64,000 nt of DNA from Moniliella sp. 'wahieum' (GCA_003971905.1 RSEE01000066.1:248001-312000); one strand, 5' to 3'; shown: positions 9,474-56,649, counted from the stretch's first letter. Translations and numbers: made by a program. Notes: generated from the sequence alone by a model not told the origin.

Positions 9474-9654
9474 CTGTTCGGAAGCTTTAAACGCGCTGCG
9501 CCACAATCCGCCACCCACCACCAGTCCAAGCTCTTCTGCTGTTAAAGGGGATGGGCCCCTGAGGGTTGGCCATTTGGGATGTGCCCATACCGACACTCCT
9601 CTTGCTCCTCACCCCCACAGCTCTCCACTCGCCCCTCTCAACCAACACCCACCA

Positions 9655-10310
9655 TGGAGAACCTCGTCACCGCCGCAACTCAAGTCTTGGGCGGGACACG
9701 CATGTCGCACAACAGCAGCCCCATCCAAGCTCCTCCAGCACCTTTGATTTGGGCAGCATGTTCGGGCTGCCACCAGCACGCATCGAAGCGGCACGATGGA
9801 CGCCAGTGCATTCAGCTCGATTGCTTCCTCGCTCCTCTCCAAGAAAGAAAATCCCAGCGACCCGGGTGCGAGCGAGGAGGAGATCAAGGCCTTGAACAAG
9901 AATGTCCAGCAGGGCAACGCCCCCGTCTCGTCTCGTGACATTGGTGCTTCTGCCGCGCTGAGCGCTATCCAATCGGTGCTCGGTGGCTCGCAGGTCATTC
10001 CGCTTCAGCCAGTCCAGCGGAGGGAGCGGCGGGATCGAGTCTGAATTGATGGGTGTCGCGATGGCCCATGCCTCGGACATTTTCGAGTCGAAGCAGGCCC
10101 AAGGCCTGCTTTCGAGTGCGTCCAAGAACGAGGGGTGCAGCAAGCAGGTGAGATGGTGATGAAGATGGTGATGAAAGAAAAGGTACGTGAGACTGGCTGG
10201 CCGAACGCAGCTACCTGTACTCCTGTACTAATTCTAGTCTTTGCTAATGTGTAATACCACAGCTACAGAGCTCGGGTGGCCTGGGTGCACTAGCTGCCAA
10301 GTTTATGTAG
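9655..10310 (+). CDS. Small Gly/Ser-rich protein resembling the basidiomycete 'beta-flanking' protein
   Basis: MENLVTAATQVLGG...SRDIGASAALSAIQ...LMGVAMAHASDIFE...QQAGEMVMKMVMKEK; intron ~10183-10262; last exon LQSSGGLGALAAKFM*; family call from motif recall. Confidence 0.6.
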
Positions 10311-10480
10311 GGCGAGAAGAGATAACTAGTGTTGGGCGTGAACACGCTGAAACTACAAGCCTGGCCAAGACGTTGAATCATCTGTGGCTCTATCTTGGTC
10401 TATGTTCTCTTTGGTCTGTGTCAGATGAACGGAGGGGGCCAAAGTACACGAACCACATAGAAATCTACTCCTACATAAAA

Positions 10481-10761
10481 TCTATCCTCCATAAAATTGG
10501 GGCGTTTTTTTCTGGCGCCAGCCATACAAGATATGTGGTAAGCGTGCCACCCGGCACGTTCCAGGCCGACGCAGCCAGGCGGATGCACATGGGTGATAAA
10601 ATTCCTCCAGCGTGGAACGGTGGCTACGGTGGCGACGGGGTTGGAACGGTAGATCGGTGGACTGTTGGAACGGTGGCTAAGGTGGCGAGCAAGCACAAAG
10701 CACAAAGCACAAAGTGGGGCGAAGCCCCGCTGACCGGGCCGTAGGCCCGGTGGTCTTCTAG
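10481..10761 (+). mobile_element. Non-autonomous Helitron, subfamily A (empty copy)
   Basis: A|TCTAT... 5' end; 3' hairpin ACCGGGCC-GTA-GGCCCGGT followed by CTTCTAG|T; sits in an A/T dinucleotide without TSD; near-identical inverted copy at 13073-13334. Confidence 0.85.
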
Positions 10762-10899
10762 TGGGTTGGAAAAGAGAAACAATAAAGGACGCCCATATAA
10801 TAGAAGAACATTTGCGCCGCAAATGGATGGGCATGGCTGGCAGCGGACGGTTGATAATGCATGTCCGACTAACCAGGGCTAGTTCGCTTGCTTGTTCGC

Positions 10900-11712
10900 T
10901 TACTCCTCAGCTAGCCACTCTTCCGCCTGTGGCCCGGCATAGGCAATGTATGGCACCCGCTGTAATGAGGGCGCATTCTCAGCTGCGACAGAACCGCAGA
11001 CCCAGGACCAGCCCAGACCGGCCAGTAGGAAGATGATGCTGAGCACCTTCCATCGAAAGAGGATGTTCAAGACCATAAACCCCCCAATCCACGCCCCCCC
11101 ACAAATGCTGGATTGGTACGCGTGGAAGCGAGCCAAGTCCTGGCAACATTAAAGAAAGTAGGGGTCAAACCAACCGCGAAAGCAAACAGGAAAGCGAAAA
11201 CAAAAGTAAGACCACATGCAGACACTTTTGTCAGCCCTTCTGACCCACAGTCCACAGAGAAGGAGTGGCCCACTCAACGTACATTCTCCGTCTCGCAGAT
11301 GAGGACTGCAACGCTGCTAAACGGAGGAAGAGCCATGCAGCCCAACAGAGGTTGGAGATGCTCCAGCCGTGGAGGAAGAATAGGCGGTGGTGCCTCGGTG
11401 TTGGGTTCCTGGACCAATGCCAGCTCCAAGCGTCCTGCTGATGGAGGGGGTGGGCACGTGGCCAGGCGGTGGGCGGGTGCCAGAGGCCGGGATGGGGCTG
11501 GGTCGACGAGGCATAGGATGGGGGCATGCCGTGTGAGCCAGATTGATACGAGTCAATGTCATATCCCTCGTGGTCATCAAAGGATCGGTGTGCTTCGGGG
11601 GCGGCGGGCGCAGAGGCCGCCGTCGGAGGGTGGGAGGAAGGGGGCACGCTGCGGGCGGCGGGGGCGGTCGGAAGGGGGGAGGAGGCAGGGTGTGCTTGGC
11701 GTCAACCAGCAT
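10900..11712 (-). CDS. Conserved fungal small multi-pass membrane protein (Pro-rich N-terminus)
   Basis: PPFSSVAVLICETEN / intron ~11281-11140 / DLARFHAYQS...GPQAEEWLAEE*; hydrophobic segments; start approximate because of frameshifts. Confidence 0.6.
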
Positions 11713-12484
11713 GTTCAGCGCCACGCACGCAGCGTCAATGGAGATGGCGGCGGCGACCACAACTGCCAACGGCAACGAACCGCAACGGCAGAGCGAGCAG
11801 CAAAGCAGCAGCGCACTGATATCTGCCGGGTGAACTGCGAAGCGCACGTCACGTAGCGCAAGCACACTGACTGTATCGCCCTTGCCCTGCCGCTCCACAA
11901 CTAGCACCGCGTATGTCACGTGGCACGTCACCCTGTCGCCGGACACCCGAGGGTTGCCTCGTCGCAACAGTGGCGCCTCCCTTGCCCTCTCCTGGCACCG
12001 CCGCATCATACATTCTGCACCAGCCCTCCGACGGGCAAAATATAGCTCGAAACAGTATCTCTTTCCATTGCCACGGCCCTCTATGTCTCTTTGTCTGCAA
12101 TCGAGGATAGAAGGAATGCCCCATCATATATGGAGAGAAAAGGTCTGGCGAAATCAGACGCTTGCCATGGACCTCTGGTTCTCACCCCCCCCCCCCAACC
12201 TGGGTAGCCCCAAACACCAAACAGCAAAACATCTTGGCGTTCAACGTTCAAACTTCAAGTTCTTCAAGGCCGAGGAAAAGCCCAAATGGCTTTTTTTTTC
12301 CTCTTTTTGGCCACATGTGACGGCTACACAGTCCTGTGCTTATTGGCAGGATCAAGGGGGCGGTGAGGTGACACTACCACCTGTCGTGTCTATGGGACTC
12401 CTCCTTAGAGCTCATCATATCTTTGGAGGGAACTCTCTATATAATACCTGAAGAGAGGTATGTGAGAACGCAATTTGTAAATGA

Positions 12485-12720
12485 CGAGGAGACCACCGGG
12501 CCTACGGCCCGGTCAGCTGGGCTTCGCCCCAGCTTGGTGCTGCGTCGCAGCCGCCACCGTAGCCACCGTTCCCCGTCGCCACCTTAGCCACCGTTCCCCT
12601 TCGCCAGTAGTTATAATATCCGATACGCGGCTGGCTGGGGTGGCTGGGGTGGCTGGCTGCGCCCCGGTGGCTTACGCAATGCTGATGTAAAAGAGTGGTG
12701 CACACCCGTTTGGGATTATA
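12485..12720 (-). mobile_element. Non-autonomous Helitron, subfamily B (3' end CTCG), 5' end interrupted by a retrotransposon fragment
   Basis: Same terminal hairpin ACCGGGCCGTAGGCCCGGT, ends CTCCTCG|T on the minus strand; internal GGAACGGTGGCTA repeats shared with the 26439-26682 copy. Confidence 0.75.
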
Positions 12721-13062
12721 TACCAGGGACGCACTCAAGAACCGTTTTTCCCCTGGTTTGACGACGCGAGGATACTACGGCACCAAGACGGCGGGCAAGT
12801 TGTTGCGCATTGGAAGGAGTTGGCTACTAAGTCTCAGTGGAAATGGTTCCTCGCTCGTATGTCAACCACGTTCCTCCGTGTCCACACGCGCTTCCTAGGG
12901 TACGGGACCGGATGGCGTGAGCCGGAGGGTCCTGAATCCTGGCGATCCCCTGGTTATATCTTGGTGTGGGCCTCCAAGTAACCCCCGCAAGATGAACGGT
13001 TCGGTTTAGACGTAGCGTTCCCCCTGTCCCAGCCTTAAGCTCTGTCAATGGAATGCACACAA
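12721..13062 (+). mobile_element. 5'-truncated copy of the CRE-like non-LTR retrotransposon
   Basis: Near-identical to 16273-16620; ends at the same ...GGAATGCACACAA terminus; flanked by TATA on both sides (possible TSD). Confidence 0.9.
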
Positions 13063-13072
13063 TATAGCTTTA

Positions 13073-13341
13073 CTAGAAGACCACCGGCCTACGGCCCGGT
13101 CAGCTGGGCTTCGCCCCAGCTTGGTGCTTTGTGTTTGTGCTTGCTCGCCACCTTAGCCACCGTTCCAACGTCCATATCTAGTTCCAACCCCGTCGCACCG
13201 TAGCCACCGTTCCACGCTGGAGGAATTTTATCACCCATGTGCATCCGCCTGGCTGCGTCGGCCTGGAACGTGCCGGGTGGCACGCTTACCACATAATCTT
13301 GTGCTGGCGCCAGAAAAAACGCCCCAATTTTATGTATGACA
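13073..13341 (-). mobile_element. Non-autonomous Helitron, subfamily A, with a retrotransposon inserted near its 5' end
   Basis: Reverse complement of ~10490-10761; CTAG 3' end at 13073-13076 preceded by A on the plus strand; after ...CAATTTTATGTATGACA the retroelement begins. Confidence 0.85.
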
Positions 13342-16300
13342 CGCCCGCCCCGCCCGCCGCCCCCCCACCCCCATCCCCACCACCCCGTCCCGTACCCACC
13401 ACCCCGTCCCCGTACCCACCACCCCCGCCCCCCCCGCCACCGACTCACCCCCAAGCGCGAGTATCATTGCTCCCTTTGCACGAACCCTGGCCACAACAGG
13501 GCCCGCTGCCCCCGCAACTCCGAAGCCAGGAACCCGGTGCCCGAAGTACCGGGTCAAGGCACGCCCCTCCTCCCCAACCCCCAACTCGCCACCCCCCGGC
13601 GCCGCAGCCCCGGCTGGGCTCCGAACAGCCAACCAATGGCTACGGCGCCGAGACCCCACGCCCCACTACCCACGCCCGCGCGCGCCCCCGCGCAGACAGC
13701 CCCCCCGCCGCCGCCACCCCGACCCTCAACCCCCCGCGCCCCCGCGCACACCGCCCCCCGCCGCCGCCGCGCCCCCACACCACCGCCACCAGACGACCGC
13801 GCAACCCCTCGACCGACACGGGGGCCGACCTCCTTCCCCGTTTGACCGCCCTGGCCGAGCGCCCAGGCACACGCAAGATACCGCCACACCTGAAGCGCCC
13901 TTTCCTTCAGATGCTCGGCCGTTTGGCGGACGCTTACTTGCAGGAGCCCTCGTCAGCACACCTGATGGATATTCTAGCGGTGCCTAAGGAAGTACTCCGC
14001 CACCACAACAAGGACAATAACCTCATCGGGACGTACCCCAACAGCGCCTGGCAACCCTCCGCCCCCCGACTTCTCAACGCGCGAGGCACTCGACCCAGTC
14101 ACAAGGCCGACCGCCTCATTCGGGAGGGCTGCCTCAGCCGCGCAGCAAGCCCTCGTCGGCCAATCCACCATTGCCCTCTCACCCCCGAGACCCAGGCAAG
14201 CCTGGAAAAGCTCCACCCCGTTGGAGAGGCGAACCCCTTCAGCCTCGGCCCGGGCACAGCCTTTGGCAACACACCACCCGCACTCGTCCCACCCACACAG
14301 GCCGCGTGGTACCGCCGGGCACCACCCTCACCGACACGACGGACAGTGGCCGTATCGTGGTGGACTTGGACGAAATCGACTTTGTTGCCTTGATTGCCAC
14401 GTTCAGAATCGACGTTGGGGCAGGTCTATCCGGGTGGACCCAGCCCCTCCTAAGAACGGCCCTTGAATGCAAGCGCTTCGTCGCCTTTCTCACCGCCCTC
14501 ACCAAGAGCATTTACCACGGCACTGCCCAGGACGCGAGCTCCTGTTGGCCTCCCGCCTTACCCCCTGGAGAAGGCATCGGGAGGCATCCGCCCCATCGCC
14601 TGCGGGGAGCTGATCTACCGCCTGTGCGCCAAGGCCATCGCTCGAGCGATCGCCCCAACAGCTGGCTTCTCCCCACCCAGTTGGGAGAGTAGCATCGCAA
14701 AACGGGGTGGAGCCTATCGTACGGATGGTCGAGCGCATGACAGCGCCAGGCGGGGAGAACGATGCGGAACTGGGCGACTTCAGCCACGTCGCCATGCTCG
14801 ACTTTACCAACGCCTTCAACACTGTGCGCCGTCGCACACTCGCCAAGGCGCTCCATGCCTACGCCCCCATCTCCTCACCTTGGGCCGATGGATCTATGGT
14901 TCCCCCACCCAGCTCTGGGTCGCGTCGGGCGGAAATGAGACCAACGTCCTGTCGGCAGAGGGCGTACGGCAGGGCGACCCCCTCGCCCCCTTTTTCTTCT
15001 CCATCGCAGTGCGGCCCACGCTGGAGAAACTGGAACAGGACCTGCCGCCGGGGCACCTGGTGATGGCATACCTGGACGACATTACGATTTTCGGTCCAGG
15101 GCCAGGCATTACCGGCCTAGCCGCGGAGCTTTTGGAAGACGACGCGTCAGGCCTCAAGCTCAACCTGCGTAAGTGTGTCGAGCGGGACCGGGACCAGATT
15201 CGGGAGGATGGTCTGCAGGTTCTGGGCACTTGTGTGGGAGGGGTAGACTGTCGTCGATCGTGGCTCCGGGCCCAACTGGCCAGTCTGAGGGAGAACATGC
15301 CTAAGTTGATGGCATCACCCGCCAGGGACGCCTCTTACTATGGCGGCTCAGCACTCAGACCAAGCTGCGCCACCTGCTCCGCACCATGCAGATGGAAGGA
15401 GAGCTAGACGACGTGCTGGCCGAGATTGATGCCTTCATCTGTACGGAGTTCAGACGGATCCGGGGCGACGAGAACCCCCAAGGTGCCAAGGACGACCACT
15501 TCGACATGCTCATGAGCCTCTCTTCGGCTGGGAGGATGTGGCAGCCCGCTTTACTCGTATATCGCGCCCCACGCCCGTGCCGCGGCCAACGAGGTCAACG
15601 ACTATCTCATTACCACTTATGTTGACCGTTCGGGACCGCAAACGGCAAGGGCCAACGCATTTACGAAGCAACGCCAGCGCTGCCGCGAGATGTGGGAGCA
15701 AAGTCGACAGGAGCTCCAGAAGCTGGACGCTGCCGATGGTCGCCATGTGGTTGAGCACAGCAACCCGCTGAGCCACAACTGGCTCTCCGCCATTCCATCC
15801 GTCCCGTACCTCAAGCTCTCTGACCAGCAGGTCCAGGTTGGTCTCCAGCTCCGCACGCTGTGCCGCACCACGCGCAGCATGTGCAAGTGCGGCATCATGT
15901 CCTCGCTGGAACATATCATGTCCTGCACCCGCACCCAGGCCAAGTTTGGTGCGTTGCATGAGGCAGTGCGGGAGCCCATTCTCCAGCTCCTCCGCTCCAT
16001 CCCCGACACCCACGTCCACAACGAACCTATGGTGGAGGAAGAGGATGGGACGAGGCGCGGACGGAAGGCACAGCGCACCGATTACCACGTGATGGGCCCG
16101 GAGCACTGGGAGGAACCGGAATGGGGTAGACCACACGCTGCGCGACACGGGATCGCAGGAGGCGCAGAGCGCGTACCGGCGGGTGGTGCATGAGAGCACT
16201 GCGTCGCCTTTGGAACGCCGGGAGAAGGAACTGCTTCGGCTTGAACAAGCAGAATGCGACAAGAACGCCAAGTACCAGGGACGCACTCAAGAACCGTTTT

Positions 16301-16620
16301 CCCCCTGGTTTTGACGACGCGAGGATACTACGGCACCAAGACGGCGGGCAAGTTGTTTCTGCATTGGAAGGAGTTGGCTACTAAGTCTCAGTGGAAATGG
16401 TTCCTCGCTCGTATGTCAACCACGTTCCTCCGTGTCCACACGCGCTTCCTAGGGTACGGGACCGGATGGCGTGAGCCGGAGGGTCCTGATATCCTGGCGA
16501 TCCCCCTGGTCCCTTAATCTTGGTGGCGCCTCCAAGTAACCCCCGCAAGATGAACGGTTCGGTTTAGACGTAGCGTTCCCCCTGTCCCAGCCTTAAGCTC
16601 TGTCAATGGAATGCACACAA
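13342..16620 (+). mobile_element. Near full-length CRE-clade-like non-LTR retrotransposon (single ORF: Zn knuckle - RT - CCHC - restriction-like endonuclease)
   Basis: CSLCTNPGHNRARC knuckle; RT motifs AGLSGWT, KASGGIRPIACGELIYRL, LDFTNAFNTV, GVRQGDPLAPFFF, AYLDDI; C-terminal CKCG..HIMSC, LHEAVR, RTDY, FPLVLTTRG; no LTRs, no APE domain seen; frameshifted. Confidence 0.9.
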
Positions 16621-16628
16621 CATAGAGA

Positions 16629-16754
16629 GCGATCCCCCTGGTCCCTTAATCTTGGTGGCGCTTCCAAGTAACCTCCGCAAGATGAACGGTTCGGTTTAGA
16701 GACGTAGCGTTCCCCCTGTCCCAGCCTTAAGCTCTGTCAATGGAATGCACACAA
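16629..16754 (+). mobile_element. Short 3'-end copy of the CRE-like element
   Basis: Matches 16497-16620; flanked on both sides by CATAGAGA (16621-16628, 16755-16762). Confidence 0.85.
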
Positions 16755-16799
16755 CATAGAGAGTGCCTATGACGTAAAAGATGCACGATATGACATAGA

Positions 16800-16921
16800 G
16801 ATCCCCCTGGTCCCTTAATCTTGGTGGCGCTTCCAAGTAACCTCCGCAAGATGAACGGTTCGGTTTAGACGTAGCGTTCCCCCTGTCCCAGCCTTAAGCT
16901 CTGTCAATGGAATGCACACAA
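16800..16921 (+). mobile_element. Second short 3'-end copy of the CRE-like element
   Basis: Matches ~16499-16620; flanked by CATAGAGA (16794-16801, 16922-16929). Confidence 0.85.
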
Positions 16922-16929
16922 CATAGAGA

Positions 16930-16983
16930 GTGCCTATGACGTAAAAGATGCACGGCGGATCAATTTTGCATATGACATAGAGA
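16930..16983 (-). mobile_element. Helitron 5'-terminal fragment (subfamily B-like)
   Basis: Minus strand reads A|TCTCTATGTCATATGCAAAATTGATCCGCCGTGCATCTTTTACGTCATAGGCAC; the last 30 nt are identical to 26449-26478; an internally deleted version lies at 16763-16801. Confidence 0.75.
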
Positions 16984-18242
16984 TTCCTCACTGTCTCGTA
17001 TGTGCGGTAGTCGCCGTGGCTGTTGTCGCGAGTCATGGGCCCGTGGTCCGTGCGTTTGGCTTAGGCTGTGGTCCCTTATACCTCCCCTATAGGCCGGGCT
17101 TCCGACGTTGTCTCACTTCCGTTTTCTATGCCCTGTGCATTCCTATCATACAAGCACCATGGGGCCCGTCCTAACGTGATGCATGATGGTTATGTTTCGC
17201 TCCATGCCGTTGACTGTGAGGCCTGCTGAGGCTCAGGTGTTTAATTGCTTTATTAATGTCACGCGTCACGCGCGTCACGGGCGAAGACGAGCTGGTAAGC
17301 CTTACCACCGTCACGCGTCACGCATCGCCGCATTGTCCCCGCAACCCCACAGCTACCACAACGCCCACCACCTACGCGAAGGCACCATGTCCTTCAGGAC
17401 AAAATGCTTATTAGCGGTTTCCACCGTTAGTATATACAGAGAGTAGCAATAACCCTTTTCCGGGCGTGCCCGAGCCCCCGCCCCCCCCGATATGAGAGGG
17501 CATCCACATTTGGGTGTCTTATTATGGTCGATGATCGATATACGAAACGATACATTTTGTTTTGCTCTCCTCTCGAATAAGTTCCGGGGATCCGCATGTG
17601 AGGTTCCCGACATTGCCCGGATTGTGTTCACGCGGCACATGTGTACAACGAGGTTGCTAAGAAACGCTGATGAAGGGGGCACTGAGGCCAAGGCTGATAC
17701 AAATAGGCGAGATGCGGGTATGCTCTCCGCTTCCCTATGTCCTCGGACATGTTTGTAACACCAGTCCATGTCGACACGTACGTCCACAGGGTTGCCGATA
17801 TATGTAGCCCCCTTTTCGGCGGGACATCCCGGAAGAACGATAAAAGGCAAACGGAGGCAGAGATCCTCACATCATTGAAGTCATCCTGTGGTGGAAGTCC
17901 TCGGGGTATTTTCCGGTATAAAGCACGGAAAAGCACGGTCCCGGTTGCCGCCGAGGTGAGGCTCATTAGATGCCGAGAGAGGTGGTTATAGAAAGATCGC
18001 TCCATTGCCAAAAGGAATTTATGAGTTGGGGTGGGGTTAGGAGATTAGACCGGTGTGTGCGCGGCGACTTTATTTTGGGGGCCTCCGCAGCAACGACCCT
18101 TCCTGGTGCATTGGACATTGCACTCGTCAGAAACTGTTAGAAACTGTCCCGGCCTGTACCGCGTCTAGACTCTGTAGGCAACCGGGCCGTCCCGGCGCTG
18201 CTTCGCTTCTCCGACGGCGCAAAGCACCATCCAGTGTCGAGT

Positions 18243-18340
18243 GCTGGCCTGCCCCTTACAGGCCCGCTGGCCTGCCCCTTACAGGCCCGCTGGCCCGCCC
18301 CTTACAGGCCCGCTGGCCTGCCCCTTACAGGCCCGCTGGC
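18243..18340. repeat. 23-bp minisatellite, 4 copies plus a partial copy (GCTGGCCTGCCCCTTACAGGCCC)
   Basis: Directly visible tandem array upstream of AOX. Confidence 0.95.
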
Positions 18341-18623
18341 GTCAGAGCAGCAAGACTGGCATAGTGCGATGCCGAATATTAATGACCGATGACTGGTGAC
18401 CAGGTGACCGGTGACTCTCCAACGTCCAACCATCATCGATCGATCGTCCAATGATATACTTCTTCTTTTGGACAAATCTCGCCGAGCCCTCTTGGTATAT
18501 AGACAGCCTAGCTCTTCCCGCCACTTCCCCCAACTCCCATCAAAACACCCAACCTACCCATTCGACGAGCTAGCCACACCGCAGACACACCAACCTGTGC
18601 CACTCATCGTTCAGTTTTTGGCT

Positions 18624-20226
18624 ATGATTCCCGCTATCCGCGCGCCCACGACGACGGCATGCCGACCCGGCTTGCTTCTGTCCGCAACGGGCAGAGGCGT
18701 TGCTTTGTCCATGTCTGCCTCTTCTCGTACAATGGCCTGCTCGCATGTGCGCCCCATGTACGGAATGTACCGCACTTTGACCAATTACACGCAAGAGGAA
18801 GTCAAGCGGAATCAAGCCGACGGTCAGTGGGGGAGCACCGTCGACACCCCGACCCTCTTCCGGCCTATCTACACGGGAAAGGACGTGCAGGCCGTTGAAG
18901 TCTCCCACTTCAAGCCTCAAAATTGGTCCGACAAATTGGCGTTTGGGATGATCCAGCTTGTTCGGTATGTTGTTGGGGGCTTTCTTCCTATACCCTTACT
19001 GCTCTCATACGCGATCCTGTGTAATATCTCTCTCCCTGTTGTGACAAGAAGCTAACACCACACGTTTCCCTCGCCCGTGCTTTTCAGCAAAACATTTGAT
19101 ATTGCCACCCGTTACCACCACCAATCCATGTACCCTACTGTCAAAGGGTTTGATCAGAGCAAAGAAGGTCCTTCCCCCGGTTTCAAAGTCTCGCTACCCA
19201 AGAAAGAGAGGATGGAAGGAGTGGATCCCAACAAGACCATGGACTTGGCCGAGATGCGCAAGAAGAAAATCAGCATGACTCCGCGTGCTTGGATGACGCG
19301 TATTGTGTTTCTCGAGACCGTGGCTGGTATCCCTGGTCTAGTGGCCGCAGCTTGCCGGCACCTTCAATCACTCCGTCTCATGCGCGGGACAAAGGTTGGA
19401 TTAACACTTTGCTCGAAGACAGCGAAAATGAGCGCATGCACCTCCTTGTTGCGATGCAGTACGTTGAACATGTGGGCCCGTTTATGCGCACCATGATCCT
19501 CGTTGCCCAGGGAGTTTTTTGGAACATGTTCTTCGCTGCCTATCTCGTTGCACCCACGGCTGCTCATCGTTTTGTTGGTGCTTTGGAGGAAGAGGCGGTT
19601 ATCACTTACAGTACGTTTTCCATTATTTTTTGTCCTCTGGCTTTGCAGAATGGTATACTAACCATCGGCATGCATTTCTTTTTCAGCGTCCATCATCGAG
19701 GACATTGAGGAAGGCCGTCTTCCCGAGTGGGAAACGCTTCCGGCGGTCAAACTTGCCAGAGAGTACTGGGGCCTTCCCGACTCGGCCACCATGCGGGATG
19801 TGATTTATGCCATCCGCGCCGATGAAGCCACCCACCGTTTTGTCAACCATACTCTGGGTTCTCTTGATCCCACCAAGGACTTTAACCCTTTTGCCAACCA
19901 CATGCCCTCACCCCAACTTCGGGGCAGCGTGGCCGGTTTGACCCGGGAGGAGGCGCTTTCTTGGGCGACACGTGCTCAAGCGGGCTCTCACAAAACAACC
20001 CACCTACGGCGGAAAAGCCCGATATCATGCACAAGTTGTTGCCGACCCTCCTTCGGCCGATGCCAATGCAGCTTTGGCCCAGAACAAGGGTGACATTGCC
20101 GCCGAAGAGGTCCAACGCCCTTCCTTCGCCCTACGGCTTCCAACCGGTGATTTTTGTATTCTGGCCTTTTGCTTCTACCCGGCCTGCCGTATTGTGGGCA
20201 TGAGTGATGGAATGACTTATGCGTAG
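18624..20226 (+). CDS. AOX: Mitochondrial alternative oxidase
   Basis: [58 protein letters not shown] di-iron motifs; introns ~18965-19088 and ~19611-19686; 3' end approximate. Confidence 0.96.
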
Positions 20227-21432
20227 TACTCTCAACTTCCTCGACAAACTCCTGGCAATAACATTCACTTCTCACTCAACTTGTTCCGCTAATAATGTTC
20301 GAAATCTTTATCACTCAGGACTCCAGGTTCAGGTATTGCCATTGTAGAACCTAGTAGTACAGCCTGCGCTAAGTTACAGCTCACATAGTATGCTGGATTG
20401 AGCAGGGTGTGCTATGCTATGTGTTGTGGCGCGATGGTAATCACGGGCTCGTTGAGCTGTCGATCTTTTGAGTGGGTCTCTCACATACCAATGTGTATTT
20501 GGCTATTGACATCTCGAAAAAGCCCCAAGAGTCTGGCTTTGGGATTGAAACACTCCAGTTGTGAGAATAATGAGAGAGATGAAGTCATACATTTCTGTAA
20601 CGGGCCTTGTCTCGGGTCCTTTTACGTATACAATATAATCCGGTTGTGCTTCCCTCCCCCCCAAACCGGATCGTTTTATTGTTGACGATGACATTGTGTG
20701 GTCGGAAAGGAGTACCACACTTAGTAGTTGTGTGGGGTCCGTTTTCGTTATAGTATTTTGCATAGATCCCCATATTCTGCTGTTAATCTGATCGTTGGCG
20801 CCCCAGAGAACTCTCCACTTGCCCCGTCACTTGTTCTCTTCTCCGAAAACAGGAGAGCAAAGCAGAGAGGCACACGGTAGAGCGACAGACTATTATCTGG
20901 ACTCGCTGGACTTGGTGCGATTGAAGCGCGGGAAAACGGTATATGGCTGAGCGATTATCGATCACGACACGGGCGTGCAGATTTGAACGCATTTCTAATC
21001 ATATGGTGACCTGCTTCTGCGGAGGAAAGAAGCGTGTCGTGTTGCGTTTTCCCTGAGGACTCTGTCCTGGTGCTGTGCCCCATGTGTTTCAGTATTGCAC
21101 TTTAATTTAGAACGCTGCCATCCTTGTCGCGCACTACGTGATGCCCTACCGTGAAGCATCATGATGTGCAACGCCAATGTGTGTGTAACAAATACGGACG
21201 TTAGGGAATGTATTATGACGGGCGTGACCCACTAAGGCACCAGAAAGAGCGTTGAGAATGGGCAATTAAAGACGTGAGGCGTCAGGCGTCAGGCAAGTGA
21301 GATTCATTGCCTCGGGGACGAAGAACTCCGAAGCGTGCAAAGCTGGATCTGGCACCATGCAGGAGGTGCAACAAATGAAAAGTAGCCGGTGGCGAGAATA
21401 TTACGGATGGACGGGAGACAGCGAGTGATTCT

Positions 21433-22750
21433 TGTCAAAAGGAAGGATCAGTTGCCCCCACAAAGGAAAGGCGGCTAAATCGTGCAGAACCATCCTGGCG
21501 TATACCGCAGCACTAGACGCACCAAAGTCTTTTTTTTCAGGAGTGCGGCTCACATTCAAGCAGACTCCTCGCTTACCTCGGCCTTGGGCTCCTCCACCTC
21601 CCCTGTCGGCTCCTCAAGGGCAGACTTCTGCTCCTTGGATGTCTCCTCAACAGGATCCGCGGTCGTGGCAGCAATCTCCTCGACAGGCTCCTCGGCCTTG
21701 GGAGCAATCTCCTAACAGGCTCCTCAGCCTTGGGAGCAGTCTCTTCCACGGGGGCTGGAGTAGACGCAGGAAGGTCCTCCTTGGGCGTCTCCGTCTCTTC
21801 AGCTGGTTTGGCAGCCTCCTCGACCTTGGGGGTCTCGACAGAAGCCGCAGTCTCATTGGGCTTGTCGCTGCCAAAACCAAAGTGAATCGGCGCGGTGGAC
21901 GCAACCGGCTCAGCAGCCGCACCAAAGCCCTTGCCAAGGGTAGCCTCCTCCTCCGGCTTATCCGACGTGGCGGAAACTACATCCCACTCGTTTGTGGAAC
22001 CGGAGACAGACTCAGGCTTGGCTGCCTCCTTGGCCTCCTCTCCCTTTTTCTTCTCTTCGTCCTTGGACTCATCTTTGGACTCATCTTTGGACTCTTCTTT
22101 GGACTTCCTTCTTGGATGCGTCGTCCTTAGAGGCATTGGGGGCCTCATCATCAACCTCATCGACACGGTTGGACGCGCTGGCCGAGAGGAGGGAGCGTCA
22201 CCCTTAGCCAAAATCACGTCTTTCTCGACCATCTTCATAATGATCGTGTTCACCTCGGGTGGCACAGTCTCTGGAGGATAATGAGTAGCTCAAAAGGCTG
22301 CGGGTACACCTTGTAAGCACGGAAGAAGGCAGTGGCCGAGTCGAGGTGGAAGTCCAGGCCGCGGTTGAAGAGGAGTTCACCAACGGTGATTTGCTCCATA
22401 AAGTAGGCCTCGCGCGGCGGCAGGGTCTTTGGGAATGGTGCCGTCAGCAAGGGCGGCACGCGTGCTAGCAACAGCAGCAGCAATGGCAGTTTCGGTGGCC
22501 TTCTTGGACTCCTCGTCCTTCTTGGCCTCGGCCTTCTTTTGACGCTTGTACTGCTTGCCCAGGGAGCGGCGGAAGGTGGCATCATGGCGGCGGCGGTAGT
22601 CAAAGTAGCTGGAGAAGGCAATGTGTCAGCACCAATGAATGGAACAGCAGTGTGTGGCGGCCAGGCGCAGAGAAAAACATACGCAGCGTGGCCGACGACA
22701 GCGCCGGCGAGCGTCAGGCCAGTGACGGCGGCAGCAGTTGATGCTTTCAT
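21433..22750 (-). CDS. TOM20: Mitochondrial import receptor Tom20 with a long acidic C-terminal extension
   Basis: N-terminal TM anchor then YFDYRRRHDATFRR, EAYFMEQITVGELL, AFFRAYKVYPQPFELL; intron after the first exon; C-terminal end approximate. Confidence 0.85.
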
Positions 22751-23351
22751 GGAGGCGGAGGTGGGGTGGTGGTGGTGGAGGGGGAGGCTGTGGGCTAGGT
22801 GACTAGCGGCTACTGACTAGCGACTGGCGACTGGTCACGGTGACCGGTGACTGACTGTCATTCTGGCCACTCGCAGCAGCAGGGCAGCAGCAGCAGAGAA
22901 CAAATCTGGCTGCAGCAGGCTTCGCGGCTGCTAGGGTTGAGTCCCCACACTGCACCCCTGCCGTGGTGGAGACGCGAGCGACTGAGCAAGCGCCACAGGA
23001 CAGCGTGCTCGAGTCCGCTCCGCAGAGCGTAGCCAAGGGTGACGTCCATGGTGTGGGCGCGTGATATTGGATAGCTCCATGATGCATGATGCATGATGCA
23101 TGATGTATGGTGGGCGAGCGCACATCACGCGCATCACGTGATCTGGCATCTCGGCCGTGGGGTGGCGGCAGTAGACAGTAGGTGGCCTGTTCTCTTCTCC
23201 TCTCTTCTCTCCCGGCCGGCTGGATCGGGTGAATCCCACGACCGCCTCCGACGCCAAGCTTCCAGCGAAGCTTCCCGCGTGGCTCGCCCCGTCCCGCCCC
23301 CGCTCCCGCTCGCCCCCTCGCGGTCAGCGGCGCTGGCCACCACTGCGTGCC

Positions 23352-26185
23352 ATGGCTCCGGCTCAGGTGCCCCAAGGCCAGCCGCCGTACCCGGGCCCAC
23401 CCGGCGTACTCACGCCGCTGCGTACTCACTACCTCAAGAAGGCCCTCGTCCAGCTCCAGGTCGAGCACGAGCTTGCCATCCTCAACCGAATAGTTCGTCG
23501 TCTTGCATCTTTCCGTCACCCGCTTGACCCAACCTCCCTCCTCCCCTTCCCCCCGCTCCTTCCGCCTGGACCTGTACGTTCAGATGCTCTGGCCGCGCTC
23601 GGCGTCCCTTCATCCGGTCCCTGGCGCCCATCCAGGCCGCGGATCTGCTTTTCTTCGTTATGTTTTCCAGCGGTGGGTCCTCACCTTCCCCCTTGTCAAG
23701 CAGGCCTCCGCTGGCTTTTTCCCCAAAGTCCAGCAGTTGGCCCAAGAGTTCTACGAGTCCAACATCTCGATTCTGGCGATCGCGAAGAGCCCACAAACGT
23801 CGCAAAATCGCCAATCGGGTCGAGCGCTACGTCACGCTTCTCTTTGCTGCCGCTATCATTGCAAAGCCCCCGCCTGGCATCCCACCAGGCGAGGCGGAGC
23901 AGGTTGTTGAGCTGACCGACCAAGATCGTCAGGCCATCACGGCTGCCGAGCAGGCTGGTGTCAGTGGTGAGCAAGATGTGGCCACACTGGCGATTAACAT
24001 TATCGCAGTTCGCGTACCTCACGCTGCGCCGGGCAAGAAGACGGACTTGGCCAATTCGCAGTTTATCGTTGCGTCCAGTGCGGGCAAAGGAACGGACGAC
24101 ACCTATGTCGCCCGTACATATACTGACTTTGAACATCTCAAGCACAGGCTTCAAAAAGAAGTCGGACCTCTGGTCTGGGTGCCTGACCTCCCTCCCAAAG
24201 ACTACCCTGCACCTGATGAGAGGATACGCAGTGTGAGCAAGTCCCTGTCCGACAGATTACTTGGCCTGACTCTGGGTAGTAGTAGTTCCAACTCCACCCC
24301 AACTAGCGGTGCTAGCACGCCGAACCGGGATGTGTCCGCCGCCTCATCTTCCCCCGTTGTCGCGCGGGAAACCAATCGCCAATCGTTACGTGCCTACCTA
24401 CGCGATTTGGCCGAGATACCAGTGATGCGGACGAGCAACCCTCGACTCATTTTTGCATTCCTCCCCGATTGAGCTTACAGAGGCGGAGATGGAGGACGCT
24501 TCTCTCCGGATCGAAATGGACGCTCGCCGTGAGACAGCGACAGTAGGCTTTGCCGAAGCAAGTGAAGTACGAGCAGCGGAGTTACGGTCGTTGCTCAGCA
24601 AGCTCAAATATGAAGTGTCCCAGCCTGATGGACTCGACAAGGTGTTTTCAGTGTTTCGTACTACTTCCCAGCTCAAGGACTTACCTGAAGACTACCGCGC
24701 GATGATGGGATGGGTCAATGAGTATGGCCGCTTCGCTCTACACGTCCTTTATTGGTTCGAACAATGGGAGCGCGACATTTGCCTCATTCAGCAAAATCAA
24801 CTTTCTCATGCCCTATTCACTTTTGTCGGCTGTTTTGCACATTACCAACCCAGCGGCCATGATCAAAGGGGTGATGAACGTATTTCTGGCGCAACCCTTG
24901 GGAAGCAAGTCTTTGCTGCAACGCATAAGCGGCGCAAGTCTTTCCGAGGGCACGAAACAGCGACACGCCATGGCACAGAGCGCAGCGCTACGGATTAATG
25001 ACCCTCTGATGGTTCAAAAGTTAAGCGCTTATGTGGACCTGCCGACTGAGAAGCGAATGCAACTCAAGACGCATTCTCAACGGGAGCGTCTCCCCCCTCC
25101 CCGTTGTTGTTCTGACCAGCACTGTATGTGGCCCGCCTTTGTCGCCATCCCAGGCGGAGCGGGTAGAGAAGGCCAGGGTGTCGCGAGCCAAAGGTGAGTT
25201 CACAGGGCCTTCGACACTCCTGGACGATTTCCATACACTTATGGTTGCTCAACTCAAGATCCACGACAATGAACAGCTCGAGTCGTTGGTCACGGGGGGC
25301 ATTATCGCTGATCTCTTCCGTGATGTGGTCGCCATGTTTATCACGCCGTTGGCTGAGATTTACCGGGACGCGCATGCCTCCGACTTTGTGGGGGACATAC
25401 AGTCGTTTTGTGATGACTTGGCCCAAACGGTCAAGGCCAACCAGGAAGGTAGGTTCCCTTTAGCCATCTTGTTGGGCCACGCTGACTTTTCTCCCGCGCC
25501 AGTTTATCGACAAACCCAACAGTTATGTACCAGTCTTCCAAGATCTCGTCGGCCGTCATGAGGAAGCTATCTATCGTTTTATCCACGAAACCCAAGTCAA
25601 GGGCCATGTTCTCTTTGGCGAACTAATCGACTATGCGCAGCGGTTTATTGACTTTTTGCGTGGCCAGGCGCCAGTGCCCATGTGGCGCAGCGCAAGGGAT
25701 TGGCGAGGTGGATATGGAGACTCTTTTACCGAAGAGGGGGACCCGATGCGGATGCGATTTTGCGCGAGACGGATGTGTTGATCCTTCATGCGTACAAGGC
25801 CAAGTGGCTGCGGGAGGTACGCCTTCGTCGGCAGCTTGCGGCGCAGAGTGGCCAAGGACTCGAGGGAGACACGTTTGGCCATTCCATCCTCGGCTTTAAT
25901 TCGACCACCACCGGCGGGGCAACAGAGATGGAGGCCGATGCGCAGGCAGAGACATCGCCATTTGAGAAGGGGGGCATTCCCGACCTCGCCTACTGCCAGA
26001 GCCAGAGCTACTTGAGATCCCCAAGCTACTCCCACAGTTCCTAGAGCTGGTACGTGAATCGCTGCACCGCTCGTTCTTCCTGCTCCGTGCGTCTTCTATG
26101 GTCTGTGTGCTGACCCATCGCATGTCATACCTGGCCCCGACACACTGGTTTGCAGGTACGCCCCATGCTGCTGGAGCAGACGTAG
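23352..26185 (+). CDS. PX-domain protein of the Ypr097w/Lec1-like family
   Basis: LTPLRTHYLKKALV N-terminal motif, PX segment YVARTYTDFEHLKHRL...PDLPPK, RETNRQSLRAYLR, FLAQPLGSKSLLQRI; several introns and frameshifts. Confidence 0.85.
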
Positions 26186-26438
26186 GCAGCGTCTTCTAGG
26201 CTGCTGTTGCCAACGAATGTTGTACATATCTCATGCATTAGCCCCTCCATCTAGTACGCTGTTCAGATGCGCAATTATGTTGAGGGACGAGCGATGACGG
26301 GTATCTTCCGACGAGGAGAAACCGCTGCCAGGGCTCTGTACTCCGGGGGGTCGAGGTCGACCGAAGTCGGCATTGCCATGGCCAGAAGACGCCGGTGTGA
26401 ATAACAAGCGCTACGAAGCGCTGCTGTGACAAACCGCA

Positions 26439-26682
26439 TCTCAAAGTGTCCGCCGTGCATCTTTTACGTCATAGGCACGTGCCGACCGGTGCCACGTTTC
26501 CAGCCACCCGCAGCCAGCGCGTATCGGTGATATTATACTACGGTGGCGAAGGGGGGAACGGTGGCTAAGGTGGCGACGGGGGACCGGGGGAACGGTGGTG
26601 GAACGGTGGCTAAGGTGGCGAAGGGGGGACGGTGGCTACGGTGGCGACGCAGCAGACCGGGCCGTAGGCCCGGTGTCTCTCG
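26439..26682 (+). mobile_element. Non-autonomous Helitron, subfamily B (empty copy)
   Basis: A|TCTC 5' end, internal GGAACGGTGGCTAAGGTGGCGA repeats, terminal hairpin ACCGGGCCGTAGGCCCGGT, ends CTCG|T. Confidence 0.8.
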
Positions 26683-27221
26683 TTCCAAACAAACAAAATC
26701 TTTCAAGCGCGGAGCTAGCGCATTCGCTCAGCGCTTGCACTCAGGGCGACCGGTGAGCTTAGCGAGCGCTGACGCGTGACGCGTGACGAGCATCCATTGC
26801 ATCATGCATCATGCATCACACTCACCGGACCAACACGCCAAGTGACTAGTGACTAGTGACTAGTGACCGGTGACCTAGTGACTAGCGAAAGTAGACTGTC
26901 TCACACGACCAATGGGAAAAGGGTCGTGGAGGCCAAGACGTACACAGCCCCGTGCCGGTCATCCGCCCGCATTGGTAATCCACGGTGGCAGCAGCACTGC
27001 GGCAGCCTCCCTCGAGGCGAGCGAAAGGGCTGAAGATTGGGATGTTGGAATGCCTCCCGCTGGCTAGTGCGACGCGCGAACAACATGCCCGCAAAAAGCT
27101 AAAAAGATCCAAGTACCGCTGCGCGGTATATAAAAAAGTCGGTAACCCGACGACGCACTGTTATCCTCTCAGACCACAGCCCCCTTCGTTTCGTCTTCAT
27201 CACTCTACCACCACCTTCGAC

Positions 27222-28451
27222 ATGGCCAGTACTTCCAACAACGATTCCGCCTGCAACGGCAGCATCCACTGCATGTCTTCCCCCAACAGCCAGGCTAGCT
27301 CATCTGCCACCTACGGGGCCTTGCCTTTGCCTCCGCGCCAAGAATCTGGCGAGCACCAACCGCTGCTTGGGATAGCACCCCAGCTAGGCCCGCTTCTGGT
27401 TGCTGTGGAGGTGCTGGGGGCAAGTGCGCTAGCGGCAAGTGCTCTGCCGCCGTAAAGCGTACCCCCCCCCATACGGCCATCCCCATTGAGCCTGAGTCAC
27501 CGGGCTCCCAAGGCTCCCAATGCGCTCGCAACAGTGCAATCTCAATGGCCGCTGCTGCCGCGAGCTCAAGGGAGAGAAGAGAAACGTGCCCTGGTTGACC
27601 CCGATACAATCCGTGACATCATTATTGGTCTGTCTGACGGCCTGACGGTACGTCGCTCCTTCCTTCTTCATCTTACCTGCCTTAAGCAGACGGTGTGCAG
27701 GCAGGTACACCTTTCCCTCCACTCTCCAACTGACCCATGTCGCCATTAGGTCCCCTTTGCTCTCACTGCTGGCCTTTCCTCGGTCGGTTCATCCAGACTC
27801 GTTGTCATTGCTGGTGTGGCCGAGCTCAGTCGGGTGCGATCAGCATGGCCATGGTGGTACCTTTCTGCCCAAGCCGAAAAGGAGCACTACGATCATAGCG
27901 AGGTCAACACCGCTGGTCGTGTGGCCCAGAGCTGCGATGAGCAAATCCAATCCGAGGTGCGATATTTTGGCACCCTATGGCATTGTGGGCCCGGTGGCAA
28001 CTCAAGTGGCAATGCAGCTGCAGCAGGCTGAAGCGACGAAACAACAGCGCATTGCTTTGGACAAGTCCTCATTGACTGCGGGCGATCGGGACGAGCTGGC
28101 GGGACGGGGAGTAACGCCTTTTCTACGTCTTGGACAGGGGTTGGAGCCCGTCTCGTCCGAACGCTCTACTCGTTCGGCCATCAACATTGGCGTGGCCTAT
28201 CTTCTCGGGGGCTTGGTGCCCCCGCTCCGTATTTTTCTTCGCCACTGCTTTCCAGGGGCTGGTTGGCATCGACGATCATTACAGGCATTACCCTGCTCTT
28301 GTTTGGCATGGCCAAGCACCGCGTCACGGGCGGAGAGGAATCGCCCAAGTCTTATGCTTGGTCAGCCCTTACAACTTTGGCTGTCGGTGGGCGGCTGCAG
28401 CTCGTCGTGGCATTGTTAAGGGTGCTCGAGGGCCCTGACACAGGCCTTTGA
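27222..28451 (+). CDS. CCC1: Vacuolar Fe/Mn transporter, VIT1/CCC1 family
   Basis: DPDTIRDIIIGLSDGLT / intron / VPFALTAGLSS, YLSAQAEKEHY, SAINIGVAYLLGGLVP. Confidence 0.92.
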
Positions 28452-28827
28452 GTGCAGACGCGCGTGGTTCCCCCTCTGTGATGTGGACCGGGATGGGGAG
28501 GCTTGATTGTGCACTCTGCAGGGTTTCCTGATACATAGCCGTGGCCTCTAATAACATTGGCTGTGTCTCGCCAACTAAAGCTCACCCTGGTCCTCGAGTT
28601 CGTATACCTTTTTGTACTCCACAATCCACTTTCAGCTCTCCTTCTACCTTGTTTCCGCGATAGTGGCTTGTTTGAAGGTGGAAGAGGACAGTACTGAAAA
28701 TTGCGATAGGGCATCAGCAGGCATATCGCAATGCATCTTGCACAAAAGAATGGAATTGGCGTCGATCAAACTGTCCAAACGTGCAAATCAATATCAGTCG
28801 GTTGAACTACTTGAATGCTGTTATCTC

Positions 28828-28909
28828 GCCTCGCTATTTCAATCGGTAGAATTTGAGACTCTATTTAGAGGTCCATCTCACGGTTGTGGGTTCGAGTCCA
28901 CGTGGGGCG
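28828..28909 (+). tRNA. tRNA-Lys(CTT) with intron (anticodon reads CTA here, probably a 1-nt sequencing deletion)
   Basis: Exons essentially identical to the 40493-40577 copy; GGTTCGAGTCC T-arm; T-run terminator. Confidence 0.85.
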
Positions 28910-29135
28910 TCTTTTTGCACCACATTCCTCTGACTTGGATACGCGCCAGAAAACCTGACCTGGTATACTAACCCTGCTTTTTTCTGAATTCATAGCATTG
29001 GCAGAATTTGAGAAAGTTATGCAGCTGAATGGTTGAGCGTTGATGTTAGTAGATGACACGGGCGTAGTAGAGAGGGAGAAGAGACAAGCATGTCACACAC
29101 ACGACTATTTTCGAAACTACCGCCACGGGAGCATA

Positions 29136-29228
29136 AGCTCCGATCTTCCAGTGGTTAGGAAGTGGGATTTTGAGTTACCTCCGCGATAACAACTTCCCGA
29201 AACCTGGGTTCGAATCCCAGTTGGAGCT
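29136..29228 (+). tRNA. tRNA-Gln(TTG) with intron
   Basis: Acceptor GCTCCGA/TTGGAGC, D-arm TTCC..GGAA, anticodon arm TGGGA-TT-TTG-A[intron]-TCCCG, T-arm CTGGG-TTCGAAT-CCCAG, T-run terminator. Confidence 0.9.
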
Positions 29229-40228: not shown

Positions 40229-40492
40229 CTGCCCTGCCCTGCCTACCCAGGCCTGGCTCTGGCTCTGCCTCTGCCTATGCCGCGGCCAATGGGCGGCTGC
40301 AACATGCTTATCATGCTCATCTGGATGCCCATTGCTTGCCCCATATCAGGCAGACCAAGCAGACCATGCCATAGCGGCTCTGCGAAAATAAGAGGCAGAC
40401 AGGCAAGAGAGGTGCGCGATCGACATATGTGCGGGCTACCGAATGGGCCGCCAGGGTATCGGTTGGTAGAGGCGGTGCTGGTATGCCAACGC

Positions 40493-40577
40493 GCCTCGCT
40501 ATTTCAATCGGTAGAATTTGAGACTCTTACTGCAGAGGTCCATCTCACGGTTGTGGGTTCGAGTCCCACGTGGGGCG
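40493..40577 (+). tRNA. tRNA-Lys(CTT) with intron
   Basis: Acceptor GCCTCGC/GTGGGGC, anticodon arm TGAGA-CT-CTT-A[intron]A-TCTCA, T-arm GTGGG-TTCGAGT-CCCAC. Confidence 0.93.
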
Positions 40578-40838
40578 TTTCTTTTTAGCTTCTGCCACCG
40601 AGGTTTGCTAAACCCGAGTCGATGGGAGGGGTGGTGCCTCGGCTGTCTTGATGTCCTTGGCTGGGTCTGAGTCACCCTCGTTTCTAGACCCATCGGCTCC
40701 TCCCGCACACGCACACGACCAATGTAGTGTCCACTGAGCCTTACGCACCACCACGACTGTCCCAGCCGCAGACCAAGGCGAGAGGGGAGTTCGGTTCGTG
40801 TAAGGCTAGGACCTATGCGTCTGACTTCGAAGCAACTA

Positions 40839-40938: not shown

Positions 40939-41048
40939 AACTTTTTTTGGTTTGTTGCGCCCCGCGGCGGATGATTGAGACACGGTTCGGGTCGGGGTTT
41001 TCTTGGGTTGCTGCGGAGCCTTCGCTTTGGGGTCCGGCAAGATCACGA

Positions 41049-56428: not shown

Positions 56429-56649
56429 TGATGGCTGTGCTTCCACAGTTACACACTACATGGAAGCAATGATTATTTTTTGCTATTCATCAAGGCCGTC
56501 CAAGTCTCGCCTGTCGTGCTGTGCGCCGGCATTGCACGGGTCGGATCCACATTTGCTGGGGCAATAACGACGAGCAGCACCGACGGACACGACGGATTTC
56601 TGTCGTTCGTTACCCTTACGCTGCACGAAGGCTTGAACCGACCATCATC

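Follow-up and report, generated by a model that had tools for sequence, protein, structure and literature searches.

Retrotransposons that lack long terminal repeats (non-LTR elements) and combine a reverse transcriptase (RT) with a site-specific restriction-like endonuclease (RLE), among them R2, CRE/SLACS and the telomeric elements of fungi, serve as models for how mobile DNA finds harmless multicopy targets and as starting points for programmable gene insertion. Can an element of this type also take another transposon as its target? The question is raised by a 64,000-nt stretch of DNA from Moniliella sp. 'wahieum' (GCA_003971905.1 RSEE01000066.1:248001-312000; henceforth termed the window, by which we mean this whole stretch). 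In it, copies of a decayed RLE-type retrotransposon lie at the 5' ends of short Helitron-like elements, and an earlier note on this DNA had read them as the traces of a retroelement that targets Helitron 5' termini. We find that the cluster consists of real insertions, made by target-primed reverse transcription (TPRT), at Helitron 5' ends. The reading developed below is that decayed copies of one RLE family entered there by TPRT with a real preference for the neighbourhood of short Helitron-like 5' ends, a case that we consider evenly balanced.

Retrotransposon insertions at Helitron-like 5' ends

The 13-mer GGAATGCACACAA occurs exactly four times in the window, always on the plus strand and ending at 13062, 16620, 16754 and 16921, where 0.17 occurrences are expected by chance and 0 of 100 shuffles reach four. 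These are the four identical 3' ends reported in the earlier note, and their final ~120 nt line up position by position, one 2-nt insertion in copy 2 aside. They belong to one frameshifted full-length copy and three 5'-truncated copies (copies 1 to 3, Table 1), all of which are, as had been claimed, antisense to the short Helitron-like elements. Copy 1 matches 16273-16625 with 96.0% identity over 354 nt, and the end of the full-length copy matches copy 3 with 98.5% identity over 131 nt; copies 2 and 3 have two substitutions in common relative to the full-length copy and copy 1, and begin within 2 nt of the same element position. The bases directly 3' of the copies are CATAGAGAG at three ends and TATAGC at one, i.e., YATAG at all four, in agreement with the earlier reading. 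Two hallmarks of TPRT are present: an identical 3' end joined to two different flanks, and 5' truncation accompanied by short duplications (TATA and CATAGAGAG).

The anatomy and the junctions of the cluster can be read directly from the DNA. The downstream motif is the reverse complement of the Helitron 5' end, as the earlier note had recognized: CATAGAGA stands without a retroelement at 16794-16801 and 16976-16983, with ATATGA before it, and at 16983 it is followed by host DNA, the minus strand reading A/TCTCTATGTCATAT (slashes mark element boundaries). That CATAGAGA might be the element's own 3' untranslated region (UTR), an objection foreseen in the earlier note, was rejected, given its absence from copy 1 and its two occurrences at a Helitron terminus without the element. 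We likewise rejected the idea that fragment E, the stretch next to these motifs (E1 and E2, Table 1), is a 3' UTR extension of a retroelement subfamily, as it is homologous to the 5' regions of the Helitron-like elements b, c and d.

Two target sites were used. At site 1, the nick falls within a Helitron, 8 nt from its 5' end (TCTCTATG^, the caret marking the nick), and served the full-length copy and copy 2. Here, element c is split, with TCTCTATG at 16628-16621 and TGTCATAC running from 13341 downward; these two pieces are contiguous, as TCTCTATGTCATAT, in E1 and E2, and therefore the full-length copy entered after position 8 of element c. The first bases of the c body, TGTCATAC, align with TGTCATAT of E1. 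At site 2, used by copy 1, the nick lies 1 nt outside the 5' end of element b (GCTATA^A/TCCC): the copy 1 cDNA begins after GCTATA, 1 nt upstream of element b, and TATA is duplicated. Before copy 1 arrived, the spacer between the 3' end of element c and the 5' end of element b was TAAAGCTATAA. The sense-strand nick proposed earlier, about 8 nt from the 5' TC, thus applies to the full-length copy and copy 2, whereas copy 1 was placed 1 nt upstream of the terminus. Similarly, of the two left junctions assigned to Helitron bodies, the one at 13073-13341 is confirmed, while copy 1 starts 1-5 nt outside the complete element b, which ends at 12715.

Target-site duplications of 2, 4 and 8 bp had been proposed. 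The 4-nt duplication of copy 1 stands; copy 2 has 9 nt (CATAGAGAG) in place of 8. The ninth base, G (16629), is the first base of fragment E, and therefore E was in place before copy 2 arrived. For the full-length copy, the duplication is 2 nt if its 5' boundary is 13342 and 0 if the boundary is 13337. The latter position comes from sequencing run X1, a food metagenome (share 0.23) and the only run listed with related sequence; none of RNA was listed. One X1 contig has a loose end at 13337, with a different flank joined to the same TGACA/CGCCC, which points either to a copy at the corresponding position of another target or to an element that truly begins at 13337; the 30-letter flank at this loose end has no match in the window. 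These loose-end observations are drawn from 8 of 21 loose ends, and the X1 contigs are without cover at 13028-13184 and 16639-16795 and leave 16953-17100 almost uncovered.

The target elements form a short family (~230-310 bp) with four 3' ends in the window, at 10762 (+), 12485 (-), 13073 (-) and 26686 (+). All four complete copies (a, b, d and the composite E + c) start with TC after an A and are followed by a T at the 3' end; neither terminal inverted repeats nor target duplications were seen on them. The stem ACCGGGCC and GGCCCGGT stops 10-11 nt short of the 3' terminus. It forms a clean 8-bp hairpin in the minimum-energy folds of the ends at 10762 and 12485 (z = -2.7 to -3.8), is one base short with an imperfect fold at the 13073 end (13073-13135; z = -2.5), and at the 26686 end appears only in the centroid fold (z = -0.62, no better than shuffles). 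By the structure of their termini, on which the label rests, the targets are read as non-autonomous Helitron-like elements. Element a, the uninterrupted relative of c, matches 13072-13334 with 93.8% identity over 275 nt, the 5' region of element b aligns with that of element d, and 16930-16959 in E1 is identical (30/30) to 26478-26449 in element d. An A/TC junction with host DNA occurs only at the outer end E, and the 5' end of element c is preceded by C, so that E + c looks like a single composite Helitron that has two 5' ends and went into an A/T site.

Further features of the family were observed. Inside each copy lie 2-3 tandem units of ~25 bp (GGAACGGTGGCTAAGGTGGCGAC-like), and two hairpins stand next to each other at the 3' end. 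The 5' regions are mosaic: E1 is similar to element c in its first 24 nt and matches element d exactly in the 30 nt that follow. In E + c, the 5' fragment of 54 nt comes from one subfamily and runs straight (GGCAC/TCTCTATG) into a complete element that belongs to a different one. An AT-rich patch with a nick-like motif, TCTCTATA at 12434-12441 (+), lies 44 nt from the 3' end of element b and is unoccupied.

The four copies are not four events. The array downstream of the full-length copy is made of two units, 16631-16799 (unit A) and 16800-16981 (unit B), that are identical at 167 of 167 aligned positions and differ by a 2-nt and a 15-nt indel (Tandem Repeats Finder: period 167, 1.9 copies, 98% matches); copy 2 and its flank were duplicated in tandem to give copy 3 and its flank. 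The unit starts with GATCCCCC and the host flank after the second unit with GATTCCTC, a GAT microhomology, and the array is most simply explained if 'copy 2 + E' was duplicated in tandem, at the level of DNA, at this microhomology. Copy 3 as an independent insertion at the outer TCTCTATG was rejected, since such an insertion would not put a second E fragment downstream. The independent insertions are then copy 1, the full-length copy and probably copy 2, i.e., two or three events at two sites.

Table 1. Features of the retroelement cluster and of the Helitron-like elements, numbered from the first base of the window
Feature	Position	Strand	Description
Full-length retrotransposon	13342..16620	+	3279 bp, RLE-type non-LTR, dead; RVT_1, tblastn, motif positions
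Knuckle, full-length copy	13468-13509	+	CX2CX4HX4C
RT motifs, full-length copy	14589-14609, 14803-14820	+	
YLDD RT motif, full-length copy	15069-15080	+	
CCHC, full-length copy	15882-15926	+	
Restriction-enzyme-like (REL) motifs, full-length copy	15954, 16023, 16074	+	LHE at 15954, E at 16023, RTD at 16074
Stop, full-length copy	16515-16517	+	followed by 3' UTR of ~103 nt
Copy 1	12721..13062	+	342 bp, 5'-truncated; last ~80 codons and 3' UTR; self-comparison, tblastn with P0058
Target-site duplication of copy 1	12717..12720 (left), 13063-13066 (right)	.	TATA; read from sequence
Spacer, copy 1 3' end to element c 3' end	13063..13072	.	TATAGCTTTA
Copy 2	16630..16754	+	125 bp, 5'-truncated; CATAGAGAG on both sides (16621-16629, 16755-16763)
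Copy 3	16802..16921	+	~120 bp; part of tandem unit B
Element a	10464..10762	+	uninterrupted relative of c; 5' end TCTACTCC (alignment-placed, approximate); 3' hairpin and CTAG/T
Element b	12485..12715	-	complete, 231 bp; A/TCCCAAAC...hairpin...CTCG/T
Element c, body and 3' end	13073..13341	-	positions ~7/9 to end; ends in hairpin and CTAG/T
Element c, 5'-terminal 8 nt	16621..16628	-	TCTCTATG; cut from body by the full-length insertion
E2	16763..16801	-	39-nt 5'-terminal fragment, TCTCTATGTCATAT...GGCAC; duplicate of E1 with 15-nt deletion
E1	16930..16983	-	54-nt 5'-terminal fragment of a third Helitron subfamily; A/TC junction to host DNA at 16983/16984
Element d	26439..26686	+	complete uninterrupted comparator; A/TCTCAAAG...hairpin...CTCG/T

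Preference, chance and rival explanations

Both independent target sites lie 1-8 nt from a Helitron 5' T, on the Helitron sense strand. CTATR, the sequence just 5' of the nick, occurs 101 times in the window on both strands, and ~3 of these sites would have been near a Helitron 5' T (sense strand) prior to insertion. Compared with random CTATR sites, two independent insertions at such positions have p ~ 1e-3. The association test is post hoc, which counts against a strict Helitron-terminus rule.

Several observations weigh against a preference for Helitron ends. By hand count, A+T reaches 0.64 in 25 nt at each of the used sites, which makes them AT-rich in a window of 60% G+C. CTATR sites with at least 0.60 A+T number 14 in the present sequence and, by hand, ~14 before the insertions, three of them at Helitron 5' ends; judged against these AT-rich CTATR sites, p is only ~0.03-0.05. 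The nick positions, +8 and -1 relative to the Helitron end, differ, and therefore a fixed Helitron-terminus rule fails. E contains an outer TCTCTATG^TCATAT site that has the same sequence as the used one but is empty; the two unoccupied copies of this outer site trace to one pre-duplication site. All of the evidence comes from two target sites in one 4.5-kb cluster, where site re-use or Cnl1-like array growth inflates the apparent association. The junctions, too, could be read differently: with a 5' boundary at 13337 the duplication of the full-length copy would be 0, the nick position being the same either way, and YATAG may be the element's own 3' end, which would alter the duplications. On the Helitron side, the 3' terminus is the canonical CTAG in two copies and CTCG, which is not CTRR, in the other two, and neither an autonomous Rep/helicase Helitron in the window nor an empty orthologous site was seen.

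The most substantial rival, which we regard as possible and rather doubtful, dispenses with Helitron recognition altogether. It posits a loose preference for CTATR followed by W in AT-rich DNA, which is rare in a 60% GC genome; such patches would include the 5' ends of Helitrons as well as the A/T-rich places that Helitrons in turn pick for insertion, and the clustering would result from re-use of regenerated sites and local duplication. The composition of the used sites agrees with this view, as only 3.1% of the 20-mers in the window reach 0.65 A+T, and with ~3 of ~14 AT-rich CTATR sites at Helitron 5' ends before insertion, two insertions there are no more than mildly unlikely. The varying offset of the nick and the empty outer site also speak for it, as does the insertion of relatives such as Cnl1 into ordinary genes, described in the part of 10.1101/2021.08.11.455996 that we consulted. 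Yet even on this count the two insertions at Helitron ends retain p ~0.03-0.05, and every insertion lies on the Helitron sense strand. Moreover, ten non-Helitron AT-rich CTATR sites in the window, such as TCTCTATA, are empty, and a further 5' junction of a full-length copy, again at TGACA, is seen in X1.

In a second rival, the retroelement would never have selected a Helitron. Helitrons are known to capture foreign DNA, and they might have landed beside existing retroelement copies, or a Helitron might have captured the retroelement and carried it along. The arrival order of element b and copy 1 is unreadable, with b at an A/T site one base from the TATA duplication, and the Helitron 5' ends at the locus are composite (E + c). 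Nevertheless, we consider such a reversal quite improbable: the full-length copy interrupts a Helitron 5' end found unbroken in other places (TCTCTATG/TCATA) and stops exactly at the family 3' terminus, which is found with another flank and is unlike the outcome of random capture, and on either side of copy 2 stands a 9-nt duplication made up of the Helitron end plus one base of E. Carriage by a Helitron would, in addition, leave the original insertion into a Helitron standing. Alternatively, the array at 16.5-17.0 kb, including the E fragments, could have arisen in one or two TPRT events through template jumping between RNAs that had been read through into Helitron sequence further downstream (3' transduction). 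RLE-type reverse transcriptases such as that of R2 can jump between templates, and units A and B are identical save for two indels, as if from one RNA source, and start within 2 nt of the same element position. This account, which we hold to be unlikely, requires a source locus with E downstream of the element, an order that insertion at TCTCTATG^ does not yield; it leaves the extra G at 16629 unexplained, whereas the 9-nt duplication explains it, and the GAT microhomology fits a duplication of DNA. An assembly error as the origin of the array's tandem part (16631-16981) seems highly improbable. Near-identical units of 169-182 bp are prone to mis-assembly, but 2-nt and 15-nt indels between units are not usual products of collapse or expansion, and unit B is not needed for the main conclusions, which are drawn from copy 1, the full-length copy and copy 2.

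For TPRT insertion at Helitron 5' ends, we infer the following steps from the anatomy of the copies together with the established behaviour of R2-type elements. The RLE would nick the Helitron sense strand just 3' of CTATR, and the freed ...CTATR-3'OH would prime cDNA synthesis on the element RNA. The primer probably pairs with YAUAG at or just past the RNA 3' end; such pairing would explain why the junction carries T where the target has A (copy 1) and C where it has G. Cutting of the second strand 0-9 nt further on would give the variable duplications (0/2, 4 and 9 nt), incomplete cDNA would give 5'-truncated copies, and restoration of the site by the duplication would permit head-to-tail stacking, as in Cnl1 arrays.

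The order of events at the locus can be reconstructed tentatively along the same lines. A composite Helitron, the 54-nt E joined to c, would have inserted at an A/T site 11 nt from element b, and the full-length element would have entered it after the inner TCTCTATG. Copy 2 would then have inserted at the same nick, giving rise to the duplication CATAGAGAG with its last G taken from E, before the 169-182-bp unit 'copy 2 + E' was duplicated in tandem at the GAT microhomology. Copy 1 would have inserted separately, at GCTATA^A, 1 nt upstream of element b.

A stronger form of the preference, in which the family truly homes and has the 5' end of these Helitrons as its niche, is plausible but tentative, and we consider it less likely than not. 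Under such homing, the DNA-binding N-terminus would recognize a conserved T-rich block ~20 nt inside the Helitron, after which the CTATR closest by, at the terminus or just outside it, would be nicked by the RLE on the sense strand. By hand count, the nick lies 20-23 nt upstream of the homologous Helitron T-rich block at both used sites; the nick-equivalent positions in E1 and E2, both unused, lie 29 and 14 nt from it. With so few sites, this regularity is only a hint.

If such homing is real, the retroelement would use a dispersed, self-renewing rolling-circle transposon as a safe harbour, and each insertion would cripple the end from which Helitrons are believed to begin transposing. It would then be the first RLE-type, and the first fungal, element known to home to another transposon, and would represent a new target class in which one parasite lives on another and disables its initiation end. 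A natural RLE plus zinc-finger module of new DNA specificity would come with it. Should the preference extend no further than AT-rich CTATR patches, what lies here is an ordinary nest of dead transposons. A full-text literature search, judged from entries and the openings of abstracts, returned nothing relevant on a Helitron-targeting non-LTR element.

The retroelement family and its host

The earlier description of the element as CRE-like with RT and RLE agrees with its protein domain match, its motifs and its relatives. RVT_1 was detected in one of the eight open reading frame (ORF) pieces scanned (E = 6.7e-11, 42.7 bits against a cut-off of 29.6). The REL region translates as C-x1-C-x7-H-x3-C-x9-LHE-x20-E-x16-RTD, which fits the REL motif of SLACS and CRE as given in the excerpted text of PMC12857005, and the columns C794, C797, H805, C809, H820, E842, D853 and D870 do not vary among 30 aligned relatives. 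On its translated motifs, the element is thus classified as an RT plus RLE non-LTR retrotransposon. The same excerpt places Cnl1, MoTeR, SLACS, CRE1/2 and CZAR in one clade; the CRE-like label, in the sense of a relationship to the fungal Cnl1/CRE group, is well motivated by these comparisons, and the element is provisionally assigned to this Cnl1/CRE-like group as a new member.

The full-length copy is dead, since its main frame has six internal stops and some motifs and stretches lie in other frames. The end of the ORF at 16515-16517 is backed by P0058, an intact 279-aa relative with 80% identity over the matched stretch. In tblastn searches with ten relatives, the full-length copy is covered over 13815-16511 and all 18 matches fall within 12721-16511; this is therefore the sole locus of the retroelement family in the window. 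For the RT piece, 57 longer relatives were found among 7999 candidates scored (best 40% identity), those with a named source being from Cryptococcus neoformans and Rhynchosporium graminicola. The C-terminal piece has 174 relatives at E <= 1e-3, 53 at <= 1e-10 and one at <= 1e-30; the top relative is P0058, and P0059 is a Kwoniella protein. Against solved structures, the family profile matches R2 proteins first (E = 6e-23 to 8e-18) and LINE-1 ORF2p next, the R2 similarity covering the N-terminal and RT parts; the REL piece alone gives no significant match. The apurinic/apyrimidinic endonuclease (APE) family is absent from the Pfam matches of the eight ORF pieces, in which the N-terminal region is low-complexity and degenerate, and a zf-C2H2_10 match at the N-terminus is weak and below its cut-off (20.4 versus 26.2 bits).

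The 5' part of the retroelement is very C-rich (13364-13431 and 13734-13786, up to 81% G+C); in these two stretches, 16-20-nt tandem units encode proline-rich low-complexity sequence around the CX2CX4HX4C knuckle. The N-terminus of the relatives is C2H2-like, unlike this knuckle.

In X1, fragments of the family are mostly 90-99% alike. Their summed depth is 30-46 over the last ~450 nt versus 3-8 over the RT region, a 3' bias as expected for many 5'-truncated TPRT copies. Compared with 15305-16296 of the window, the X1 copies have 1-3-nt indels at or near the frame changes of the window copy, and better-preserved family members probably exist in the X1 organism. Exact-pattern scans of the genome contig and viral contig collections gave 0 loci with other DNA copies, and metagenome scans with the family alignment and P0058 as queries found no relative.

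The host can be placed through a gene for the Not3/CCR4-Not subunit at 60651-61835 (-), whose best match is from Tilletiaria anomala (50% identity) and whose other best-scoring named matches are mostly from Ustilaginomycotina. By this protein, the host is assigned to the basidiomycetes as Ustilaginomycotina-like; its lineage seems poorly represented among public protein sets. No Rfam family, including the hepatitis delta virus (HDV)-like ribozyme, was found in 9500-27500, and no tRNA near the retroelement locus; the insertion target is therefore not a small RNA gene. The window is free of TTAGGG-type repeats. Elsewhere in it, ARAGORN predicts a tRNA-Gly(ACC) at 29145-29228 (+). Repeats outside the cluster comprise an unclassified inverted pair of ~245 bp (41045-41290 and 56643-56883, 87% identical), a dispersed 95-nt repeat (28827-28916 and 40492-40586, 91.6% identity) and a short tandem array with a unit of ~80-90 nt (50279-50492).

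Comparison with known systems

Like the window element, Cnl1 of Cryptococcus is a non-LTR element of fungi in which RT is combined with a restriction-like endonuclease at the C-terminus, and the nearest named relatives of the window element are hypothetical proteins of C. neoformans and Kwoniella (33-45% identity). According to the consulted part of 10.1101/2021.08.11.455996, Cnl1 likewise forms head-to-tail arrays of full-length and truncated copies in which one site is re-used. In the excerpts of that paper and of PMC12857005, however, the arrays of Cnl1, MoTeR and FoTeR are subtelomeric or lie in telomere repeats, whereas the window element is found in gene-bearing DNA and is flanked by Helitron-like 5' ends. 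The REL motif of CRE1/CRE2, SLACS and CZAR, as excerpted in PMC12857005, is matched by the window element save for L in place of R in RHD/N and T in place of P in R/KPD. These elements likewise have a single RT-REL ORF; they differ in their target, the spliced-leader gene, and in their kinetoplastid hosts.

Among proteins with solved structures, R2 is the only relative of the window element, with similarity confined to the RT and N-terminal regions. R2 integrates by TPRT, in which the first strand is nicked and the cut of the second strand is variable. It differs in its ribosomal DNA target and in its HDV-like ribozyme, which was not found in 9500-27500 of the window.

The closest parallel in strategy comes from Tx1, which has an APE-type endonuclease. 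In the excerpted text of PMC6719617, Tx1 prefers a dispersed DNA transposon, Tx1d, as its target, which is the same ecological idea as the 'renewable safe harbour' proposed for the locus described here. The two systems differ in host, that of Tx1 being a vertebrate, and in target, Tx1d being a cut-and-paste transposon rather than a rolling-circle Helitron; moreover, the specificity of Tx1 was shown biochemically, whereas that of the window element is putative. The Helitron preference, if real, would thus be a new form of a known strategy for which Tx1 and Tx1d are the precedent.

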